NCBI GenBank assembly: GCA_029243485.1
Contig: JAQWRY010000088.1
Location: 299,212-363,211, forward strand
Direction of reading: 5' to 3'
DNA: 64,000 nucleotides
Source: Candidatus Binatia bacterium
GTDB lineage: Bacteria > Desulfobacterota > Binatia > UBA12015
The translations under genes were made by a program, and so were the position numbers. The notes below the pieces were generated by a model. The model was given only the letters and a program-made list of their open reading frames with translations, was not told where the DNA came from and ran no database searches. Every line of letters starts with the position of its first letter. Position 1 is the first letter of the stretch. Of this stretch, positions 9,203-50,172 are shown in pieces.

Positions 9203-9574
9203 ATGGTGTGGCGCGTATGCGATTCTGAGAACTGCGACTTCTTCCCTCTTTCGGACTGCGGCTGGAAGGCCCTGGGCAATCCCCCCGGCAGCAGGGGCCA
9301 CAAGTGCCGTGGGAGCCACGAAGGCTACGAAAGTTGTAAAGTGCTTCTCAAGGAGAACGTCATCAAGGCCACATGCAAGGACTCGACCGTGCTCAATTTT
9401 GGGTCTCCAGCGTCTACGTACGGCGCTGCGTGGGCGATTGTTTGGGTTGGTCAGTCTTACTGCGCTCGGGTGAACGCAGCGACGAACCCCATCCGCGTGA
9501 AAGACGAGCCGGGCTATTGGAAGGCGGTCCATGCCGAAGTCACGGAGGCTTGTCCGCCGATGAATCCGAACTAG
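9203..9574 (+). CDS. Cysteine-rich hypothetical protein (123 aa)
   Basis: The product has 8 Cys (CDSENCDFFPLSDC...CRGSHEGYESC...C...C...C). The gene sits in a locally lower-GC stretch while keeping elevated third-position GC in this frame. It may be the C-terminal part of a longer frameshifted gene; see the findings. Confidence 0.4.
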   Translation: MVWRVCDSENCDFFPLSDCGWKALGNPPGSRGHKCRGSHEGYESCKVLLKENVIKATCKDSTVLNFGSPASTYGAAWAIVWVGQSYCARVNAATNPIRVKDEPGYWKAVHAEVTEACPPMNPN

Positions 9575-9618
9575 GGAGGGGAAAGTTCTAGGTTGTGATC
9601 CATGGTAGGAAGCAAGCC

Positions 9619-9864
9619 ATGAGCAATCCGGTAGACGCGCTGGTTCTCGACTTGCTCGAGTGGATCGACCCGGAGTCTCGCCCGTACTCGGAAGTCATCG
9701 ATGCGTGGCGGACCTCCTGCCCGCGACTGCCCGTCTGGGAGGAAGCCAACGGCCGCGGATTTCTCGAACGGCGCCACGAGTCCGGGGGCAGGACGTCCGT
9801 AGGCGTGTCGGCTCTCGGTCGGCGGCACCTCAGAACCGCGAGAACACCCCTCCGTGCCGAGTGA
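9619..9864 (+). CDS. Small hypothetical protein (81 aa)
   Basis: An ATG start has AGGAAG 7 nt upstream. The product reads MSNPVDALVLDLLEWIDPESRPYSEVIDAWRTSCPRLPVWEEANGRGFLERR..., and its stop overlaps the start of the downstream SDR gene. Confidence 0.4.
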   Translation: MSNPVDALVLDLLEWIDPESRPYSEVIDAWRTSCPRLPVWEEANGRGFLERRHESGGRTSVGVSALGRRHLRTARTPLRAE

Positions 9865-17076: not shown

Positions 17077-18843
17077 ATGAAGATCGAAGCTCTGAAGCGC
17101 AGCGGGCTTGCCCTGCTTCTCCTCCTCCTCGTCTCCGGCTTCACCGCTGGTTGCGGCTCGGATTCCACATCGGGAACGACGACGTCCGGACCGCCGGTGG
17201 AAGTGCCGCCCGATCCCGATCCCGATCCCGATCCCGATCCAGAGCCGAAACCAGAACCGGATCCGAACGGGTGCGACGAGTCGTTCGACGGCGCCTACGA
17301 CGCGATCCAGAACGTCATCTTCGAACGACATGGCTGCACGGCACAGGCGTGTCACGGCAGCAGCGCTGCCGGTGGCCTCGAACTCACTGCGGACGTTTCC
17401 TACGACAACCTCGTCCGAGCCGACTCGGTTGGGAGCAGCCTACGTCGCGTCGAGCCGACGAGGGTGAAGGATAGCTACCTCTTTCATAAGCTGGCTTCTG
17501 CGACCGACCCGTCGCTCGTGACGATCGACATCGCCGGGAGCCCGATGCCGCTGTCCGGTGGGGCGCTGTCGCCAGAGGAGCTCGACGCCGTGCGATTGTG
17601 GATCGAGGGCGCGGCCCCGCGCGAAGGCTCGATCGGTGACGAGTTCGGTGGCAACCGCGTCGCCGAGCTGCTCGACACTTGCCTGCCGGATCCCGACCCC
17701 GTCGTGATCGAACCCCTCGAGCCGCCCGCTGCAGGGACCGGTGTCCAGATGGCGATGCCCCCGCATCAGATCCCGGGCGGAGCCGAGTTCGAAGTCTGCT
17801 TTGCTGAGTACATCGATTTCCGGGAACAGATTCCGGAGGAGTTCCGCACCGCCGACGGCAACTTCTTCTTTGCGAACGGCAGCTTGAATCTGGCCGACCC
17901 GAACACGCATCACATGACGATCAGCTACTCCGGCTTCGGCGCCGAAATGGTCGACGCGCCCGAGTTCGGGCGTTGGGAATGCGCGGCAGGCCCGCTCGAG
18001 GGCGAGTCGTGTGATCCCCTCGATCCCAGCCACTGCGGCGGTGGGCAATGTCGATCCGAGCTTCAGAACAGCGTGGCCTGCCTGGGCTTCGGGCCGCCGG
18101 GGGGCGGGAGCGGCGTCACCCCCGGAAGCCGGATCAGGACCGGGAACGGGCGCCCCGGCTTCTTCGCCAAGTTGCAGTCGCACGGGATCTTCTACTGGAA
18201 CTCCCACGCCTTCAATCTGACGCCGAAGGACCTGACGCATCACAACTACACCAACATCTACTTCACTGACGATCTCCGCTTCCAGGACGTTGGCTTCCAG
18301 GACACCTCGAACATCGGCATCGCCGCCGGCACGCCGCCCTTCGCGAAGGTGGAGTACTGCGCTGAGCATGTGCTCGCACGCGGCACGGAGCTGTTGAGCC
18401 TCGTCTCGCATACGCACAAGCGAGGCGAGCGGTTCACTATGACTCTCAAGAGCACCGGAGAACTCTTGTACGACAACCCGTTCTGGGACGATCCGGTCTT
18501 CGTCAACTACGACCCGGCGCGGGTGTTCGATTCCGAGGACCCCGACGACCGCACGATCATCTACTGCGCGGTCTACAACAATGGTGTCGCGCCGGACGGT
18601 TCGCCCGACGTGGGCAGCGTCACGCGTCTTTCGCGCAAGCCGGCCCGTTCGAGTTGTCGCCCCGTGGCCTGTGCCGAGGGGTTGGTCGGCGAGCCCTGCG
18701 CCGGCGTGAACGACGACGCAGCATGCGACACGTCACCCGGCGCGGGCGACGGCATGTGTGACGCGTGCTCGATCTCGGGAGGTCTGACCAGTGACGACGA
18801 GATGTTCATCCTGTTGGGATCGACGCTCGAGGTCGTAGGGTAG
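17077..18843 (+). CDS. Cysteine-rich secreted lipoprotein with a (DP)n linker and a cytochrome-c-like CX4CH motif
   Basis: It has a signal peptide and a lipobox (LLLLLVSGFTAGC) followed by PPDPDPDPDPDPEPKPEPDP. The segment HGCTAQACHGSSAAGGLELTAD resembles planctomycete-type cytochrome c domains. There are more than 20 Cys residues downstream. Confidence 0.75.
   Translation: MKIEALKRSGLALLLLLLVSGFTAGCGSDSTSGTTTSGPPVEVPPDPDPDPDPDPEPKPEPDPNGCDESFDGAYDAIQNVIFERHGCTAQACHGSSAAGGLELTADVSYDNLVRADSVGSSLRRVEPTRVKDSYLFHKLASATDPSLVTIDIAGSPMPLSGGALSPEELDAVRLWIEGAAPREGSIGDEFGGNRVAELLDTCLPDPDPVVIEPLEPPAAGTGVQMAMPPHQIPGGAEFEVCFAEYIDFREQIPEEFRTADGNFFFANGSLNLADPNTHHMTISYSGFGAEMVDAPEFGRWECAAGPLEGESCDPLDPSHCGGGQCRSELQNSVACLGFGPPGGGSGVTPGSRIRTGNGRPGFFAKLQSHGIFYWNSHAFNLTPKDLTHHNYTNIYFTDDLRFQDVGFQDTSNIGIAAGTPPFAKVEYCAEHVLARGTELLSLVSHTHKRGERFTMTLKSTGELLYDNPFWDDPVFVNYDPARVFDSEDPDDRTIIYCAVYNNGVAPDGSPDVGSVTRLSRKPARSSCRPVACAEGLVGEPCAGVNDDAACDTSPGAGDGMCDACSISGGLTSDDEMFILLGSTLEVVG
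17209..17240. repeat. (CCCGAT)5 hexanucleotide microsatellite inside the lipoprotein gene
   Basis: Five perfect tandem CCCGAT units plus a partial unit encode the Pro-Asp repeat linker. Confidence 0.9.
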
Positions 18844-18963: not shown

Positions 18964-19001
18964 AAAAAAGGGGCGTGGCCACCCGGCCACGCCCCTTTTT
19001 T
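18964..19001. terminator. Bidirectional intrinsic terminator
   Basis: The sequence AAAAAA-GGGGCGTGGCC-ACCC-GGCCACGCCCC-TTTTTT forms a perfect 11-bp GC-rich stem with a 4-nt loop, flanked by an A6 tract and a T6 tract. It lies between convergent gene ends at 18843 and 19035. Confidence 0.85.
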
Positions 19002-19034: not shown

Positions 19035-19770
19035 CTACAGGAATGCGCCGCTCGAGGAAGCGCAACGGATGACGCCGACCTTGCTCTTGGGCAGGGCCGC
19101 GCCTTTGATCTTCGGAACGAAGGCCATGCTTAGGCCGTCATGCGAGACGGCGAGGAGCTTGCCGTAGAAGGCGCCGACCGCGTAGGGCGGTGTCGGTGGG
19201 GCATCGTTCTTGGTGACGACGCTGGTCGACGTGGCGGGCGGGTCGAGGCGGACGATCGCCGCTTTGGGCCCACTGCGCTTGAACTTGGCCTTCACGAAAA
19301 CCTTGGAGCCGTTCGCGAGGCCGATGTCGCTGAACTTGCGGTACGAGCCACCGGCTTCCACCGATAAATCGCCCTGGATGACGACGGCCGCGAGGTGATG
19401 CCGCCCCACAGGAAGACCGCTTCAAAGGAGATTACGCTCGACAGCTTCGTGTGGAAGAGGACTTCGCCTCCGGCGTTGGCCTGGGGGCCGAGCTTGAAGG
19501 AGGCGTAGGTCGTGCCGCGGATCGGAGTTGTGTCGCCGACGAGGACCGCGGTGACGGCAGGGCCGACGCCGGGAATGCCCTACGTAAACACGCCGTCCGA
19601 CCCACCCACAACGGTTGCGAGGAACGCAACGGTGCCGATCGAGCTGGCTTCGGAAATCTTCAGGAACTCGTCGTACACGCCGCCCGCGGCTGCCGGCTGG
19701 CTCATCGCGGCGACGGCAGCGAGGACATAGGAACAGGACAGTCTACCGTTTCATGGTGGGTTTGCCCTCC
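19035..19770 (-). pseudogene. Disrupted ORF of unknown function, read in three frames (possibly a SYLF/Ysc84-like lipid-binding domain protein; speculative)
   Basis: Protein-like translation on the reverse strand switches frame twice, from MSQPAAAGGVYDEFLKISEASSIGTVAFLATVVGGSDGVFT* to GIPGVGPAVTAVLVGDTTPIRGTTYASFKLGPQANAGGEVLF... and then to ...SYRKFSDIGLANGSKVFVKAKFKRSGPKAAIVRLDPP...FVPKIKGAALPKSKVGVIRCASSSGAFL*. Confidence 0.4.
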
Positions 19771-19934
19771 TCGAGGCACTTCTGTGCGCGGGTGCGCGGG
19801 TTGGGGACATGCGATCGCGACCACCACCCCATAGGCCAAATCCAGAGGCAATGCATTTCTCGTTGCATCTTTGGGGCATTTCCGGCGGTGGGGCTCCGGT
19901 TGAGACCACCTCGTGCAGCGTGTTCTATAGGTGA

Positions 19935-21557
19935 ATGGAGTTTAATCTAGCCGATCTTTTCGAGCACGCCGTCGACCACTTCGGAGACCGCGAATACCTA
20001 CTGGCCGGGGGCAAGCGGCGCACGTACCGCGAGATGGAGGAGAGGGCGAACCGCCTGGCCCACCACCTCGCCGGCCAGGGCATCGGGAAGGACGACCACG
20101 TCGGGATCTACGCTTACAACTGCGTGGAATGGGTAGAAGCCCTGTGGGCCGTCTTCAAGATCCGCGCGGTCTGGATCAACATTAATTATCGCTATGTCGA
20201 AGACGAGCTTCGCTACCTCTTCGACAACGCCGATCTCAAGGCTCTGGTGTTCGCTCGGGAGTTCGCGCCACGGGTCGCGGGCGTCCGGGACTCCATGCCG
20301 CTGTTGCGACACATTGTCATGCTCGAGGACGGCTCGGGAGTAGATGCGTCGGGGCTCGATCCGGTCGACTACGAGACCGCTCTCGCGCAGGGAGCTCCGG
20401 AGCGTGATTTCGGCCCGCGCTCGGGCCAGGACCGGTACATTCTGTACACCGGCGGGACGACCGGCATGCCCAAGGGCGTCGTCTGGCAGCACGAGGACGT
20501 CTTCATGGCGCTAGGCGGAGGCATCGATCCGATGTCCGGCGAGCGCGCGACCCGCCCCGAGCAGATGGTGGAACGCGGCAAGGCGATGGGGATGTCGATC
20601 GCGTTCCTGCCGATCGCACCTCTCATGCACGGCGCGACGCAGTGGGCGGTGATTGGGCAGAGCTTTACGGGCAACAAGGTCGTCTTGATGGCGAAGTTCG
20701 AGGCGCCCGAGGTCTGGCGTCTCGTCCAAGAGGAGAAGCTCAACTCGATCATGATCACCGGCGATGCGATGGGCCGACCGTTGATCGAGGACCTGCAGGC
20801 CGCCAGCTCCGGCCGCGATGTCTCCTCGCTGTTCACGCTGTCGTCGAGCGCTGCGACGTTCTCGCCGACGGTGAAGGACGCGTTCTTCGAGAAGTTCCCG
20901 AATCTCATGATGATCGACGCGATTGGTTCGTCGGAGACCGGCAACACCGGCATGGTGACGGTGCAGCCCGGCCACACGGAGATGAAGGGCGGTCCGACCG
21001 TCAAGAAGCTCGGCGCGACCGTGGTGCTCGACGAGGACGGCAAGGTGCTCCCGCCGGGAACCGGCCAGATCGGCAAGCTCGCGCGCGGCGGCGACATCCC
21101 GCTGGAGTACTACAAGGATCCGGTGAAATCGGCCGAGACGTTCGTCACGTACGACGGGGTCCGCTATTCGATCCCCGGCGACTACGCGACAATCGAGGCT
21201 GACGGCAGCATCACGTTGATCGGCCGTGGCTCGGTTTCGATCAACTCCGGTGGAGAGAAGATCTTCCCGGAGGAGGTGGAGGCCGCCGTAAAGTCGCATC
21301 CGGACGTGTTCGACTGCACGGTCGTCGGCGTGCCCGACGAACGGTTCGGGCAGCGGGTGTGTGCGGTCGTTCAGTTGCGCGAAGGACGGTCTCCGACGCT
21401 CGAGTCCGTCCAGGAGCAGTGCCGCACGAAGATCGCCGGGTATAAGGTGCCTCGCGAGATGCACGCAGTTGATGAGGTGGTGCGATCGCCGAGCGGCAAG
21501 CCCGACTACCGGTGGGCGAAGGAAGCGGCCCTGCAAGCGCGCGGCGACTCGGCGTAA
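19935..21557 (+). CDS. AMP-dependent acyl-CoA synthetase/ligase (FadD-like)
   Basis: The ORF is 540 aa with the AMP-binding motif YTGGTTGMPKGV, plus conserved adenylate-forming enzyme blocks and a C-terminal domain. Confidence 0.9.
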   Translation: MEFNLADLFEHAVDHFGDREYLLAGGKRRTYREMEERANRLAHHLAGQGIGKDDHVGIYAYNCVEWVEALWAVFKIRAVWININYRYVEDELRYLFDNADLKALVFAREFAPRVAGVRDSMPLLRHIVMLEDGSGVDASGLDPVDYETALAQGAPERDFGPRSGQDRYILYTGGTTGMPKGVVWQHEDVFMALGGGIDPMSGERATRPEQMVERGKAMGMSIAFLPIAPLMHGATQWAVIGQSFTGNKVVLMAKFEAPEVWRLVQEEKLNSIMITGDAMGRPLIEDLQAASSGRDVSSLFTLSSSAATFSPTVKDAFFEKFPNLMMIDAIGSSETGNTGMVTVQPGHTEMKGGPTVKKLGATVVLDEDGKVLPPGTGQIGKLARGGDIPLEYYKDPVKSAETFVTYDGVRYSIPGDYATIEADGSITLIGRGSVSINSGGEKIFPEEVEAAVKSHPDVFDCTVVGVPDERFGQRVCAVVQLREGRSPTLESVQEQCRTKIAGYKVPREMHAVDEVVRSPSGKPDYRWAKEAALQARGDSA

Positions 21558-31840: not shown

Positions 31841-31973
31841 CTAGCTCCTCCGACTCATGCTCACCTCGGCCATGGGCGTGGGATAGACGAAGTCTCTCGT
31901 CTAGGCAATTCTGAGAGCACCAATTGTAGCCGGCCGCTTGACCGCCGGCCCTGCGAGCGGGAAACCCATTCGC

Positions 31974-32777
31974 ATGGGACGTCTCGAGAATCAGGTTTGT
32001 GTCATCACCGGAGCGGGAATGGGGATCGGGCGGGGGATCGCGCGGAGCTATGCGCGTGAGGGCGCGCGTGTCCTGGTGGCGGAGTTGGATCCGGACGCGG
32101 GCGAGCGCGTGGCCGCCGAGCTGGCGGAGATCGGCGCCGATGCGCGCTTCGTGCGCACCGACGTGAGCGACAAGGACCAGGTGCACGCGGCGATCGCCGA
32201 TGCGGTGTCCGCCTGGGGGACGGTCCACGTGCTGGTCAACAACGCGTGGGGCGGCAGCAACATCGCGCGGTTGGAGTGGAAGACCGATGAAAACATGATG
32301 CACGGCCTCAAGACGGGATACTTATCCGTCTTCTGGGCGATGCAAGCCGTCTTCCCCCACATGAAGGCGCAGGGCGGCGGCAGCATCATCACGATGTGCT
32401 CACTCAATGGGGTGAACGCGCACATGTATTCCGTGGAGTACAACGCGTCGAAGGAGGCCGCCCGGACGCTCACCCGAACGGCAGCCCGTGAATGGGGCCG
32501 CCATCAGATTCGTTGCAACGTGATCTGTCCGGCCGCGGCCACCGAGGCCTACGTCCGCTTCCGCGACCAGAATCCGGAGACCGCCGAGGTCATGCTCACC
32601 CAGAACCCCATGGGCCGAATGGGCGACCCCGAGACCGACATCGCCGGCGTCGCCCTTTTCCTAGCCTCAGACGACTCGAAGTACCTGACAGGAAACACGC
32701 TCTTCGCCGACGGCGGCGGCCACATCAACGGCGTAAACTGGTCCCCCGACCTCCCGGAGGAGAGGGACGTTGGTTAG
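31974..32777 (+). CDS. SDR-family oxidoreductase
   Basis: It carries ITGAGMGIGRGIA (the TGxxxGxG cofactor-binding motif), NNAW and YNASKEA (YxxxK). Its last codons lie inside a 51-bp palindrome. Confidence 0.85.
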   Translation: MGRLENQVCVITGAGMGIGRGIARSYAREGARVLVAELDPDAGERVAAELAEIGADARFVRTDVSDKDQVHAAIADAVSAWGTVHVLVNNAWGGSNIARLEWKTDENMMHGLKTGYLSVFWAMQAVFPHMKAQGGGSIITMCSLNGVNAHMYSVEYNASKEAARTLTRTAAREWGRHQIRCNVICPAAATEAYVRFRDQNPETAEVMLTQNPMGRMGDPETDIAGVALFLASDDSKYLTGNTLFADGGGHINGVNWSPDLPEERDVG

Positions 32778-32814
32778 TCGTTGTTTAGTCTAAACAACGA
32801 CTAACCAACGTCCC
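32764..32814. terminator. 51-bp perfect palindrome (25-bp arms, single central T) spanning both convergent stop codons
   Basis: GGGACGTTGGTTAGTCGTTGTTTAG-T-CTAAACAACGACTAACCAACGTCCC. The stops of the + gene (TAG 32775-32777) and the - gene (TAG at 32801-32803, reverse) both lie inside the arms. Confidence 0.7.
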
Positions 32815-33661
32815 CCCGGAGTTCGTTCAGGAACGCGCGGACGGAGTCGGTGAAGACGTCGTTGTTGTCGCCGGCGACCATGTGGCCGGCGCCGGAGACG
32901 TCGACGAACTTGGCGTGGGGGACGAGCTCGAGGAAGTGGCGGGCGCCTTCTTCGCTGAGGAGGTCGCTCTGGCGGCCGCGGACGAGAAGGGTGGGGATGT
33001 CGACCGCGCGCGCGGCGTCGTCGATCATGTCGTCGCGGCCTTCGGTCTGGCGGTCGATTCCGACGAAGCCGGGATCCCAATGCCAGCGCCAGCGACCGTC
33101 GTCGCCCTTGCGTAGATTTTTCGCGAGGCCCTCGGAGCTCTTCGGCCGCGGGCGGTTCGGGTTGTAGGCGGCGACCGCGTCGGCGCATTCGTCGAGCGTT
33201 GCGAACCCGTCCGAGTGCGCCTTCATGAACTCGAGGATCCGCTCCACGCCGTCGCGCTCCATCCGGGGGGCGACGTCGACCAGGATGAGGCCGATTGCGA
33301 AGTCGCCCTCGGATTCGCCCTGAGCGAGGAGGGCGGCGAGCCCTCCCAGCGAGGCCCCGACTAGAACAGGAGGCTTGGCGAGTTGGGGGATCAGCTCGAC
33401 GATGTCCGCCGCGTAGTCCTGGAGCTGGTACTGCTGGTCCTTCGCCCAGTCGCTCTCGCCGTGTCCGCGTTGGTCGAGGGCGACGACCTGCCACCCGTCT
33501 TCTGCCAAGGCGCATGCGGTATCGGACCAGGAATGCCGAGTCTGTCCGCCGCCGTGCAGCAGGACGACGGGCGTTCCGTTCGGGTCTCCGTAGACGTCGG
33601 CCTGTAGCGTGAGGCCCTTCGCGCCTTCGAAGGCGATGGGGCGTGGTCGTCCGCGTCGCAT
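32801..33661 (-). CDS. Alpha/beta hydrolase
   Basis: It has the HGGGQTRHSW motif and the nucleophile elbow GASLGG, and is 286 aa. Its C-terminus ...ELRGDVG is encoded by the palindrome. Confidence 0.85.
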   Translation of the reverse strand: MRRGRPRPIAFEGAKGLTLQADVYGDPNGTPVVLLHGGGQTRHSWSDTACALAEDGWQVVALDQRGHGESDWAKDQQYQLQDYAADIVELIPQLAKPPVLVGASLGGLAALLAQGESEGDFAIGLILVDVAPRMERDGVERILEFMKAHSDGFATLDECADAVAAYNPNRPRPKSSEGLAKNLRKGDDGRWRWHWDPGFVGIDRQTEGRDDMIDDAARAVDIPTLLVRGRQSDLLSEEGARHFLELVPHAKFVDVSGAGHMVAGDNNDVFTDSVRAFLNELRGDVG

Positions 33662-33749
33662 ATCTCGTGCACGCTAGTGGTCGGCGATCGTGCTCGCAAA
33701 AGGCGACGGTTGCCCCGGCACGAGGCATCGGCCATGGTTTCGGGCCCAC

Positions 33750-35162
33750 ATGCCAGTCCAATTCCAAGGGCGACGCCTCCTCGCCGGCTTGTTCTTGCTC
33801 GCCTGCGCGTGCACGACGCCGGATCCGGGTCCGCCGGCGCAGCCGAACGTCCTCCTCGTTTCGATCGACACGCTGCGCAGCGATCACCTCGGCGCGTACG
33901 GCTACGACCGCGATACGAGCCCAGTGCTGGACCGGCTCGCCGCGGAGGGCGCGCTATTCGAGTCCGTCGTCGCGTCGTCGTCGTGGACGCTGCCGTCGCA
34001 CACGACGCTCCTCACGGGACTCCCGCCCGAGCTGCACGGCGTGGACACCTCCGAGGAACGTCTCCTGACGGAAGCGACGACGCTCGCCGAGGTGCTGCAC
34101 GAGCGCGGCTACGCGACCGCCGGGTTCGCTTCGGGGCCCTACCTCCGGGCGATGTACGGACACGATCAGGGCTTCGACACGTACGACGAGAGCACCGTCT
34201 GGCCCGAAGACGACATTCACAGAAAGCCGACCTCGCCACAGCTCGAGACGCTTGCCGTAAACTGGCTCGACGCCTGGCACGTGAAGGAGGACGAAAAGCC
34301 CTTCTTCGTGTTCTTGCACATGTGGGATCCGCACTACGACTTCTCCCCGCCGCCGCCCTACGACATCATGTTCGACCCGGAATACGAGGGCACCGTCACC
34401 GGTGACGACTTCGCCGGGACCGACCAGGTGCACAAGGACATGGCCGCGCGGGACCTCGAGCACGTCCTCGCACTCTACGACGGAGAGATCCGCTACACCG
34501 ACGAACACCTGGGCCGGATTCTCGCCGCCCTCGAACGGCTCGGCGTGTACGACGACACCATCGTCGTCGTCACGAGCGACCACGGCGAGGAGTTCTTCGA
34601 GCACGGCAAGAAGGGACACTCGAAGGGCCTCTACGACGAGGTGGTGAAGATCCCGTGGGTCGTTCGCTACCCGCGCCGCATTCCCGCAGGACAGAGGATC
34701 GGGAACCAGGTGCGTTCGATGGACGTCGCACCGACCATCCTCGGACTCGCCGGCATCGAACCGCCGCAGGGCTTCGGCAGCGGTTCCGCGAACCCGTACC
34801 GGGAGCACGATCTGAGTGGCTGGATCACCGGGGCCCGCAAGGTCGCCTCGTTCCCGGATCTCACCGCCTTCAGTCACGAGACGATGTGGGCCCACCGCGT
34901 CTCGGTGCAAACCCCCAAGCAGAAGCTCATCGTGATTCGCACGCCGAAGGGCCGGACGGTCGAGTTCTACGACCTTGCAAACGACCCGGGCGAGAAGCAG
35001 GATCTCACGGCCGGCGGCCCGGTCCAGGGAAAAGGCCGGGCGCTGCTCGGCTCCCTGCGTGCCTGGGACCAGCATTGGAAGGGGCGCGCGCCTCTTTCGG
35101 CCCCGATCGAGCTGGATCCGAAGCACGTCGAGCAGCTCCGGGCGCTCGGCTATGTGGAGTGA
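33750..35162 (+). CDS. Sulfatase-like hydrolase/transferase (alkaline phosphatase superfamily) with a non-canonical active site; probable lipoprotein
   Basis: It has the metal-binding N-terminal block NVLLVSIDTLRSDHLGAYGY and the C-terminal blocks VVVTSDHGEEF and GLYDE. The canonical CxPxR position reads T-L-P-S-H. Signal peptide: LLAGLFLLACAC. Confidence 0.8.
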   Translation: MPVQFQGRRLLAGLFLLACACTTPDPGPPAQPNVLLVSIDTLRSDHLGAYGYDRDTSPVLDRLAAEGALFESVVASSSWTLPSHTTLLTGLPPELHGVDTSEERLLTEATTLAEVLHERGYATAGFASGPYLRAMYGHDQGFDTYDESTVWPEDDIHRKPTSPQLETLAVNWLDAWHVKEDEKPFFVFLHMWDPHYDFSPPPPYDIMFDPEYEGTVTGDDFAGTDQVHKDMAARDLEHVLALYDGEIRYTDEHLGRILAALERLGVYDDTIVVVTSDHGEEFFEHGKKGHSKGLYDEVVKIPWVVRYPRRIPAGQRIGNQVRSMDVAPTILGLAGIEPPQGFGSGSANPYREHDLSGWITGARKVASFPDLTAFSHETMWAHRVSVQTPKQKLIVIRTPKGRTVEFYDLANDPGEKQDLTAGGPVQGKGRALLGSLRAWDQHWKGRAPLSAPIELDPKHVEQLRALGYVE

Positions 35163-49081: not shown

Positions 49082-49501
49082 TCAGCCGGCTTTGGACCCG
49101 AGTTTCAGAATCCGGTCGAATTCGGGCTTAGCGACGGGCATGACGCTCAAGCGCGATTGCTTGATGAGGGCCATCTCGGACAACGCCTTGTCCTCTTTGA
49201 TCTCCGCGAGAGTGACGGGGCGCTTCAGCGCCCTCTTCGCCGCGAGATCGACGACGACCCACCGATCGTCGTCGATCGTCGGATCCTGGTAGAACTCGCG
49301 CACGACCTCGCAAATACCGACCACCTCGGTCCCGACGATGGAGTGATAGTAGAGCACGAGGTCGCCCTTCTTCATCTCCTTCAAGTTGTTGCGGGCCTGG
49401 TAGTTCCGAACGCCGTCCCAGTATGTCTTCTTGTCCTTGACGAGTTGGGACCAGGGGTACTTGGTGGGTTCTTGTTTCACGAGCCAGTATTGCTTGGGCA
49501 T
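49082..49501 (-). CDS. EVE (PUA-like) domain protein
   Basis: MPKQYWLVKQEPTKYPWSQL...GDLVLYYHS...AEIKEDKALSEMALIK is typical of EVE/YTH-like domains. The start is taken at the internal Met, since the longer N-terminus is Arg-rich junk. Confidence 0.85.
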   Translation of the reverse strand: MPKQYWLVKQEPTKYPWSQLVKDKKTYWDGVRNYQARNNLKEMKKGDLVLYYHSIVGTEVVGICEVVREFYQDPTIDDDRWVVVDLAAKRALKRPVTLAEIKEDKALSEMALIKQSRLSVMPVAKPEFDRILKLGSKAG

Positions 49502-50172
49502 GGTTTGGTGATTAGCCGAAATCCTGCAGCGGGGCGATCCTCTTTCAACGTCTCCTCGACCCATTCGTCGATGAGCGCTCGAAACGTATTCAGAAAATCT
49601 TCCTCCGCTTCGGGCGCGAGGTCGTCGAGTTCGTGTGGGTCGATGTCGATCGCGTAGAGCTGCTCGCGGTCGCTCTTGATGTCTTGGATGTACCGCCACT
49701 CGGGTGTCGTGACGACGCGGCCTCAGGAGCGAAGTGCATCGCTGCCGATCTGGGTTACGACGGCTTCTTTGGGGTTCTCCAGCGCGCCCCCCGGAGGCGA
49801 GGAGGGGGAGCAGGGATTGGCCGGGGATGTCCCACCGGCCGGGGAGGGAGGCGCCGGCGATCTGCGTTAGGGTGGCGTAGACGTCGGCGAGCGTGACGAG
49901 GTCCGCGTAGCGCCGGCCCTACTTTGCATCCCCTCGGCGGTGTGGGTACGCGGGATTGAAATCGTCGCGAGCGGTCTCGGCGAAGCCCCAGTCCTGTGGG
50001 CTGTACGTCTAGAGCTTGTCGAGCGTCGGCGTGATTACGCGGTCGTTCCCGAGGAAACCGAAGCCGCTCCACCCCATGTCGCCGCCGACGACCACGGCGA
50101 TGTTCGGCGGTTCACATGCAGTGCAGAAGACGAGGGAGGCGAGGATCAGGGTGCGCACGAGGCGGAGCATCG
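49500..50172 (-). pseudogene. Decayed sulfatase gene (in-frame stops and frameshifts)
   Basis: Reverse-strand sulfatase blocks are interrupted by stops. These are a signal peptide MLRLVRTLILASLVFC, the N-terminal PNIAVVVGGDMGWSGFGFLGN, and the C-terminal LYAIDIDPHELDDLA box. Confidence 0.5.

Follow-up and report, generated by a model that had tools for sequence, protein, structure and literature searches.

How do two unrelated enzymes, encoded on opposite strands, come to end in the same three residues and the same stop codon? This question is raised by a stretch of 64,000 nucleotides from a Candidatus Binatia bacterium (assembly GCA_029243485.1, contig JAQWRY010000088.1, positions 299,212 to 363,211), hereafter the window, in which a gene for an SDR-family oxidoreductase and a gene for an alpha/beta hydrolase converge on a 51-bp perfect palindrome that overlaps the ends of both. 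An earlier note on this DNA, made from the sequence alone, had read the palindrome as a bidirectional terminator or mRNA-stabilising hairpin, had likened it to small repeat elements and had proposed that it constrains the C-termini of both enzymes. Our comparison with related loci points rather to a young, lineage-specific inverted duplication, produced by a short-range template switch or by fold-back synthesis, an origin that we consider probable, with some reserve. The genes and the parts of the palindrome, in window positions, are the following.

31974 to 32777, plus strand: SDR-family oxidoreductase gene, coding for 267 aa from the ATG of the NCBI annotation (MDG2308817.1), protein ending ...PDLPEERDVG*.
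32801 to 33661, minus strand: alpha/beta hydrolase gene, 286 aa (MDG2308818.1), protein ending ...FLNELRGDVG*.
32764 to 32788, both strands: left arm, GGGACGTTGGTTAGTCGTTGTTTAG, which holds the last SDR codons, (A)GG GAC GTT GGT, and the TAG stop at 32775 to 32777.
32789, both strands: central base, T on the plus strand and A on the minus strand, the sole asymmetric position.
32790 to 32814, both strands: right arm, the exact reverse complement of the left arm, which holds the minus-strand hydrolase codons (G)GG GAC GTT GGT and the TAG stop at 32803 to 32801.

The palindrome is real and lies where it had been reported, as its two 25-nt arms are 100% complementary (25 of 25 positions) around the single T. 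Each gene takes its last three codons and its stop from it, GAC GTT GGT TAG (DVG*) occupying positions 3 to 14 of the arm in both, with the SDR gene ending at 32777 and the hydrolase gene at 32801; each arm also takes in 2 nt of the preceding codon, AGG in SDR and GGG in the hydrolase, and the spacer between the two stops measures 23 nt. Both family assignments were confirmed by Pfam, and NCBI annotates MDG2308817.1 and MDG2308818.1 as consecutive genes on a 458,547-bp contig of a Candidatus Binatia metagenome-assembled genome (MAG). The mechanically called SDR open reading frame (ORF) begins at the TTG at 31938 (279 aa); homologues and NCBI begin at the ATG at 31974 (267 aa, MGRLENQ...).

The claim that such a structure is beyond chance also held. 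The 25-mer arm found no match in 100 dinucleotide-preserving shuffles, and by our own estimate about 6e-11 perfect hairpins of 25 bp would be expected in 64 kb. No other perfect inverted repeat of the window is as long, the runner-up being a 17-nt terminator at 18964 to 19001. Calculation of folding energies gave a very stable hairpin in both transcripts, with -47.7 kcal/mol (z = -8.8) for RNA of the plus strand and -50.4 kcal/mol (z = -8.2) for RNA of the minus strand, and the 51-mer folded as a DNA hairpin reached -27.9 kcal/mol (z = -12.3). The stem comprises 25 bp (24 bp in the predicted fold, where the 1-nt centre becomes a 3-nt loop) at 48% GC, and the folding models show both transcripts able to form the same hairpin of about 24 bp.

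The evidence on its origin came from relatives of the two proteins and of their junction. None of 239 homologues ends in DVG (0/120 for SDR and 0/119 for the other hydrolase proteins), and the divergence of the window proteins from their relatives begins exactly at the arm boundary. All close SDR relatives (82–90% identical) end in ...PDLPEE-LPx*, where the window protein reads ...PDLPEE-RDVG*, the arm starting inside the R codon. Close hydrolase relatives end in ...FLRDHVxxD*; the window protein matches only up to ...FLNELR, where it resembles the ...FLNTELRDE* of one relative (L004, below). More distant members of the hydrolase family end in ...RDEVGR* or ...LRDEVGHA*, and hydrolase tails vary naturally.

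The same convergent hydrolase/SDR arrangement is kept in three independent relatives (L001, L002 and L004), whose proteins are 69–84% (hydrolase) and 82–88% (SDR) identical to those of the window. The distances between the stop codons in the related loci are as follows.

L001 (GCA_029262395.1): spacer of 48 nt between the stop codons.
L002 and L003 (TARA): spacer of 46 nt between the stop codons.
L004 (Logan): spacer of 39 nt between the stop codons.

No inverted repeat was found at the junction of L001, L002 or L004, where the spacers are GC-rich and unrelated to the palindrome, and these junctions fold no better than their shuffles (z from -1.3 to +0.8). When the DNA of the window was aligned with that of the relatives, homology was lost only between the hydrolase ...FLNEL and the SDR ...PEE, with collinear flanks. 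Since only the tails and the spacer are affected, the palindrome appears to have replaced both native tails together with the spacer, and since the relatives lack a hairpin it is no perfected version of a conserved terminator. All these data suggest a young, lineage-specific replacement at a junction that has been rearranged among relatives. The proposal that the palindrome constrains the two C-termini is thus better put the other way round, as it overwrote the native tails (SDR ...EELPx* to ...EERDVG*), and comparison with their relatives shows that both proteins carry short non-native tails. In this regard, the codons of these tails are non-preferred (GTT makes up 8.8% of Val, GGT 13% of Gly and AGG 3.6% of Arg codons, with a GC content of 0.83 at third codon positions), which fits a sequence only recently brought into the two reading frames.

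An exact reverse-complement copy of adjacent sequence, differences from relatives that are confined to the copied segment and outgroups without the repeat are together the signature of template switching or fold-back synthesis, and all three features were found at this junction. One template switch is known to suffice for the making of a perfect stem (PMC8794818, PMC5453318), and in bacteria the process has been shown to turn inverted repeats into perfect ones (PMC5941160). The course of events would then have been the following. The ancestor would have carried the convergent hydrolase and SDR genes with an ordinary GC-rich spacer of about 40–48 nt, as the present relatives do. About 25 nt beside one gene end, most likely the last codons of the hydrolase with the TAG and the initial 11 nt of the 3' untranslated region, would have been copied in reverse-complement orientation by a short-range template switch or by fold-back synthesis, during replication or break repair. 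The copy would have displaced the last three codons of SDR, its stop and most of the spacer, and the stops that the copied segment carries in three frames would have closed the SDR frame again at once. It would have fallen into the same frame as the hydrolase, a 1-in-3 chance, giving DVG* in both proteins; because the palindrome has stops in every frame, a common DVG* frame is a 1-in-3 outcome and needs no selection.

As to which arm was the template, all close SDR relatives have kept the LPx tail, so that the SDR-side arm cannot have been the source, and the variability of hydrolase tails together with the ...RDEVGR* and ...LRDEVGHA* endings of the distant family members makes the hydrolase-side arm the better candidate. 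It may plausibly have served as template, as these slight resemblances suggest. The perfect pairing over 50 nt implies either a young event or an inverted repeat kept perfect by repeated template-switch correction.

The palindrome resembles the template-switch and quasipalindrome mutations described in other genomes (Ripley model; Loytynoja and Goldman 2017, PMC5453318; Monttinen and Loytynoja 2022, PMC8794818; Lavi et al. 2018, PMC5941160) in being an exact reverse-complement copy of adjacent sequence with a perfect stem made in one event, in the clustering of its differences from relatives within the copied segment and in a perfect pairing that needs no selection. It differs from them in spanning two stops and rewriting the C-termini of two convergent protein genes at once, and arms of 25 nt around a 1-nt centre are long for such events; in addition, the ancestry of the source arm is undemonstrable without a close outgroup. 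Perfect inverted repeats over coding sequence, with both arms translated, have been described in mitochondrial genes of Nematomorpha (PMC6649704); those reach 284 bp, are numerous and lie within single genes, whereas here one 51-bp case is common to two convergent bacterial genes.

Several observations weigh against a template switch or fold-back copy. The closest database proteins are only 84% and 90% identical, and no conspecific or near-identical genome was found among the sequences searched. Neither arm aligns to the DNA of any relative, and both look compositionally foreign, with the lowest-GC 31-mer core and the non-preferred codons, which inserted foreign DNA would explain equally well. 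Furthermore, the A at 32763 agrees neither with the C of the orthologues nor with the G expected from mirroring, the switch points show no clear microhomology, and the search for further copies within the source genome covered 64 kb only.

If an inverted duplication of this kind is right, the locus offers a clean natural example from an uncultured bacterial lineage, in which one short event makes a long perfect hairpin, deletes a spacer and rewrites the C-termini of two unrelated enzymes. It would illustrate how RNA structures at 3' ends and new protein tails can arise without selection, and it cautions that perfect palindromes at gene ends need not be terminators or repeat elements. To a specialist it is not surprising; it is a neat and fairly ordinary case of a known mutational process, and it opens no new biological question.

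The copying could also have belonged to the repair of a double-strand break or a deletion, in which snap-back (hairpin-primed) fill-in during end-joining produced the palindrome as a filler and both genes were shortened at their ends, perhaps with the removal of an intervening gene such as the DUF4331 gene of some relatives. This possibility is brought up by the gene orders found among the related loci.

Architecture (a), SDR forward and hydrolase reverse, directly convergent: window, L001, L002 and L004.
Architecture (b), a 1.8-kb DUF4331/MopE gene adjoining each enzyme: L005, SDR then DUF4331; L006 and L007, hydrolase convergent with DUF4331.
Architecture (c), SDR forward, then an SGSH_C fragment and the hydrolase, both reverse: L011 and L012.

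The two DUF4331 proteins of architecture (b) are 70% identical. The DUF4331/MopE-like gene of the relatives encodes 599 aa (L005:3896-4549, L006:2619-4418), and the SGSH_C (sulfatase C-terminal) fragment encodes 179 aa (L011:5046-5585) and resembles a truncated gene. That a 1.8-kb gene or a fragment can stand between SDR and hydrolase, that the window spacer is shorter than those of the relatives (23 nt against 39–48 nt) and that both gene tails are altered would all be expected of a break-repair scar. However, the neighbour-joining SDR tree places the direct arrangement (a) basally, in four lineages, which suggests, at the weak support of that tree, that (a) is probably ancestral and (b) and (c) derived, and no gene loss is then needed. 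Neither a DUF4331 nor an SGSH_C remnant was found in or beside the palindrome. A break-repair scar would differ from a template switch only in the copying enzymes; sequence alone cannot separate them. We regard it as unlikely, and the presence of three architectures among close relatives suggests a rearrangement-prone junction, which counts in favour of a one-off inverted duplication.

The composition and internal structure of the palindrome raise the question of whether it was brought in from elsewhere. Two further features have to be listed here.

32769 to 32790, plus strand: internal 11-bp tandem near-repeat, GTTGGTTAGTC followed by GTTGTTTAGTC, 10/11 identical and mirrored in the other arm.
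32774 to 32804, both strands: AT-rich core TTAG...CTAA, the lowest-GC 31-mer of the window at 32% GC, containing TAG, TAG and TAA.

The 11-mer unit, GTTGKTTAGTC, occurs in the window only inside the palindrome, and its tandem arrangement indicates that one arm had a small history of its own (slippage) before being mirrored. The 51-mer holds stops in all three frames on both strands (TAG at 12–14, TAG at 23–25 and TAA at 28–30), so that any ORF entering it is closed within ten codons. Two long alternative-frame ORFs, at 32492–32788 (plus) and 32790–33887 (minus), both end in ...GRWLVVV* at the second TAG of the palindrome; they are probably spurious high-GC ORFs that illustrate these stops.

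A core at the compositional extreme of the window, a tandem unit in each arm, stops in all frames and both orientations and the lack of resemblance of either arm to sequence of the relatives are all what would be expected of an inserted foreign or mobile palindromic element, either a low-copy relative of miniature inverted-repeat transposable elements (MITEs) or repetitive extragenic palindromic elements (REPs) or something of a new kind, which brought its own stops and deleted the native spacer and tails. The likeness to REPs and MITEs had been raised in the earlier note, together with a search for further copies of the 25-mer arm, which we ran on the window and on public collections, and none was found. 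Within the 64 kb, neither the 25-mer arm nor its inner 15-mer had another copy with up to 3 mismatches allowed, and when the palindrome and the arm were compared by blastn-short with the window and with every relative locus fetched, only chance 8-9-mers were returned. An exact 20-mer of the arm had no match in 185,579 representative genomes, in the JGI metagenomes (241 M records) or in IMG/VR, the inner 29-mer had none among the IMG/VR viral contigs, and blastn of the 69-nt region against plasmid and phage collections gave no match. A gapped pattern that required only the outer 11 nt of each arm had 0 matches in genomes and 2 in metagenomes, both of them unrelated palindromes with only the 11-mer in common. 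One of these (L009:981-1034) is an AT-rich perfect palindrome at the end of a 1-kb contig of 1x coverage; the other (L010:5380-5600, JAABUY010000535.1) has inverted arms each longer than 100 bp and stands beside an ORF with a CCHC zinc knuckle (gag-like), which probably belongs to a eukaryotic retroelement. No Rfam family was found for the palindrome, which gave only sub-threshold matches to generic microRNA hairpins.

Additionally, no target-site duplication surrounds the palindrome. The only flanking direct repeat is CTCCGGG (minus strand), at 32754–32760 and at 32816–32822, that is, at unequal distances of 4 nt and 1 nt from the arms, and both copies are native coding sequence (LPE of SDR and ELR of the hydrolase), the SDR-side copy being conserved in relatives. 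These flanks might have acted as microhomology. None of the ten neighbours scanned against Pfam is a transposase, RAYT or integrase gene, and the head motif of REPs is absent, with neither GTAG nor CTAC in the 51 nt. With a single copy in the window, no related copy in the public collections and orthologues that end differently, the repeat-element proposal is refuted as far as it can be tested on this material. An inserted foreign element in the wider sense seems to us quite unlikely, and it is very doubtful that Binatia harbour an undescribed, low-copy palindromic insertion element of which the palindrome would be the first copy to be seen. If they did, stops in three frames and both orientations would let such an element settle within or between gene ends with no fusion protein as a result, and both neighbours would receive a ready-made 3' hairpin.

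The comparison with known element families agrees with this outcome. MITEs and palindromic elements in or beside ORFs, such as the Rickettsia palindromic elements and the Correia elements of Neisseria, are multi-copy and carry terminal inverted repeats and target-site duplications. The palindrome is like them in being a small palindromic segment able to change the ends of coding sequences; unlike them, it lacks these family features. REPs are imperfect, of about 35 nt (20–40), extragenic, present in hundreds of copies (tens to hundreds), linked to RAYT transposases and provided with a conserved GTAG-type head that these transposases recognise, whereas the palindrome is perfect, 51 nt long and single-copy in the window, overlaps both coding regions and lacks the GTAG head.

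Other kinds of palindromic site were considered and rejected. The consensus of integron attC sites is an imperfect palindrome with RYYYAAC...GTTRRRY cores, beside an integrase or a cassette array; here the order of the motifs is reversed (GTTGG...CCAAC), the palindrome is perfect and there is no integrase among the ten neighbours. A site for a tyrosine recombinase, or a dif-like site, was rejected because a 1-nt centre is too small for the 6-8-bp overlap region, and a protelomerase site or hairpin-telomere junction because the palindrome is internal to a syntenic chromosome region. The sequence also has no resemblance to any sequencing adapter known to us, of which it might have been a remnant.

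The hairpin is nonetheless placed where a regulatory role could be expected, and it could be held that selection built it, and kept it perfect, as a bidirectional terminator or mRNA-stabilising structure. The RNA folds on both strands are very stable, and inverted repeats are enriched at the 3' ends of convergent genes in bacteria (PMC6060812). Furthermore, REP hairpins that lack a U tract can terminate transcription in part and stabilise transcripts, and between convergent genes they are correlated with higher expression of both (bioRxiv 10.64898/2026.03.23.713779). As for the palindrome, no U tract follows it on either strand (the plus strand continues CCCCCCGGAG and the minus strand UCUCCUCC, also written TCTCCTCCGG), and the terminator scan of the window did not list it. 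Both TAG stops, at arm positions 12–14, lie 11 nt inside the 5' arm. Terminator hairpins require at least 10-15 nt of free RNA past the A site, as a terminating ribosome blocks their folding, and a stop placed 5 bp upstream of a terminator lowered its efficiency from about 90% to below 10% (PMC4824070). The geometry is likewise far outside the normal range, with a stem of 25 bp at 48% GC and a loop of 1-3 nt against a GC-rich stem of about 5-14 bp and a loop of 3-8 nt.

The window itself provides an example of how the source genome terminates transcription.

18964 to 19001, both strands: bidirectional intrinsic terminator, AAAAAAGGGGCGTGGCC-ACCC-GGCCACGCCCCTTTTTT, with 17-nt perfect arms, -38.5 kcal/mol and z = -5.8.

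This element, which can be written A6-GGGGCGTGGCC-ACCC-GGCCACGCCCC-T6, lies in the spacer between a plus-strand ORF ending at 18843 and a minus-strand ORF ending at 19035, and it indicates that the source genome uses canonical A6-stem-T6 terminators that sit inside spacers. Like canonical bidirectional terminators, the palindrome stands between convergent genes as an inverted repeat and folds in the transcripts of both; but they have A/T tracts, a GC-rich stem of about 5–14 bp and a stop at least 10 nt upstream of the stem, whereas the palindrome has no A/T tracts, a 25-bp stem at 48% GC, stops inside the stem and no conservation in relatives. We infer that the hairpin is not a canonical intrinsic terminator, and this part of the earlier note was not borne out, given the lack of a U tract, the stops inside the 5' arm and the hairpin-free junctions of the relatives, which also speak against any conserved requirement for it. 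A hairpin made and maintained by selection is, in our judgement, very unlikely.

Any effect on RNA would more probably be of the REP type. Between convergent genes of E. coli, REPs are, like the palindrome, hairpins without a U tract in a common 3' region (bioRxiv 10.64898/2026.03.23.713779), and by this analogy protection from 3' exonucleases and partial Rho-assisted termination are plausible on both transcripts. The hairpin would then act, if at all, as a REP-like barrier to 3' exonucleases or as a partial Rho-assisted pause site. As an alternative role, it could plausibly be processed by RNase III, for which a 25-bp perfect duplex is a plausible substrate. In DNA, perfect palindromes around a 1-nt centre belong to a type known to be fragile (SbcCD), and this fragility argues against long-term selection for the one found here, which at that level is probably neutral to slightly destabilising and not selected.

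The sequence is present in one assembly only, and a spurious palindromic join of two contig ends during sequencing or assembly of the MAG has to be considered. Only one NCBI contig carries the exact hydrolase, which independent assemblies lack, and palindromic artefacts are known at contig ends. Here, however, the palindrome is internal to a 458-kb contig, three independent relatives have the genes around the junction in the same order, the flanking sequences do not mirror each other past the 25 nt of the arms, and the internal tandem unit looks biological. Moreover, 51 nt matches no common default k-mer size and the sequence no adapter, to our knowledge. An artefact seems to us very unlikely, and we retain the inverted duplication as the best account of the locus.

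Lastly, the surroundings of the two genes are those of an ordinary chromosomal region. All ten neighbours scanned against Pfam have metabolic or housekeeping functions; among them are genes for a Leu/Phe-tRNA protein transferase, an ECH protein, a cation-efflux protein, a sulfatase, an aconitase, an ABC/MacB protein, a P450 and a histidine kinase. Nowhere in the window was a tRNA or tmRNA gene found, nor a match to any Rfam family at the gathering threshold. Short AT-rich pockets also occur at 19850-20204, 9313-9633 and 49368-49605, where windows of 23-51 nt have a GC content equal to or below that of the palindrome, in a stretch of 65% GC overall; these pockets are probably intergenic or promoter regions.

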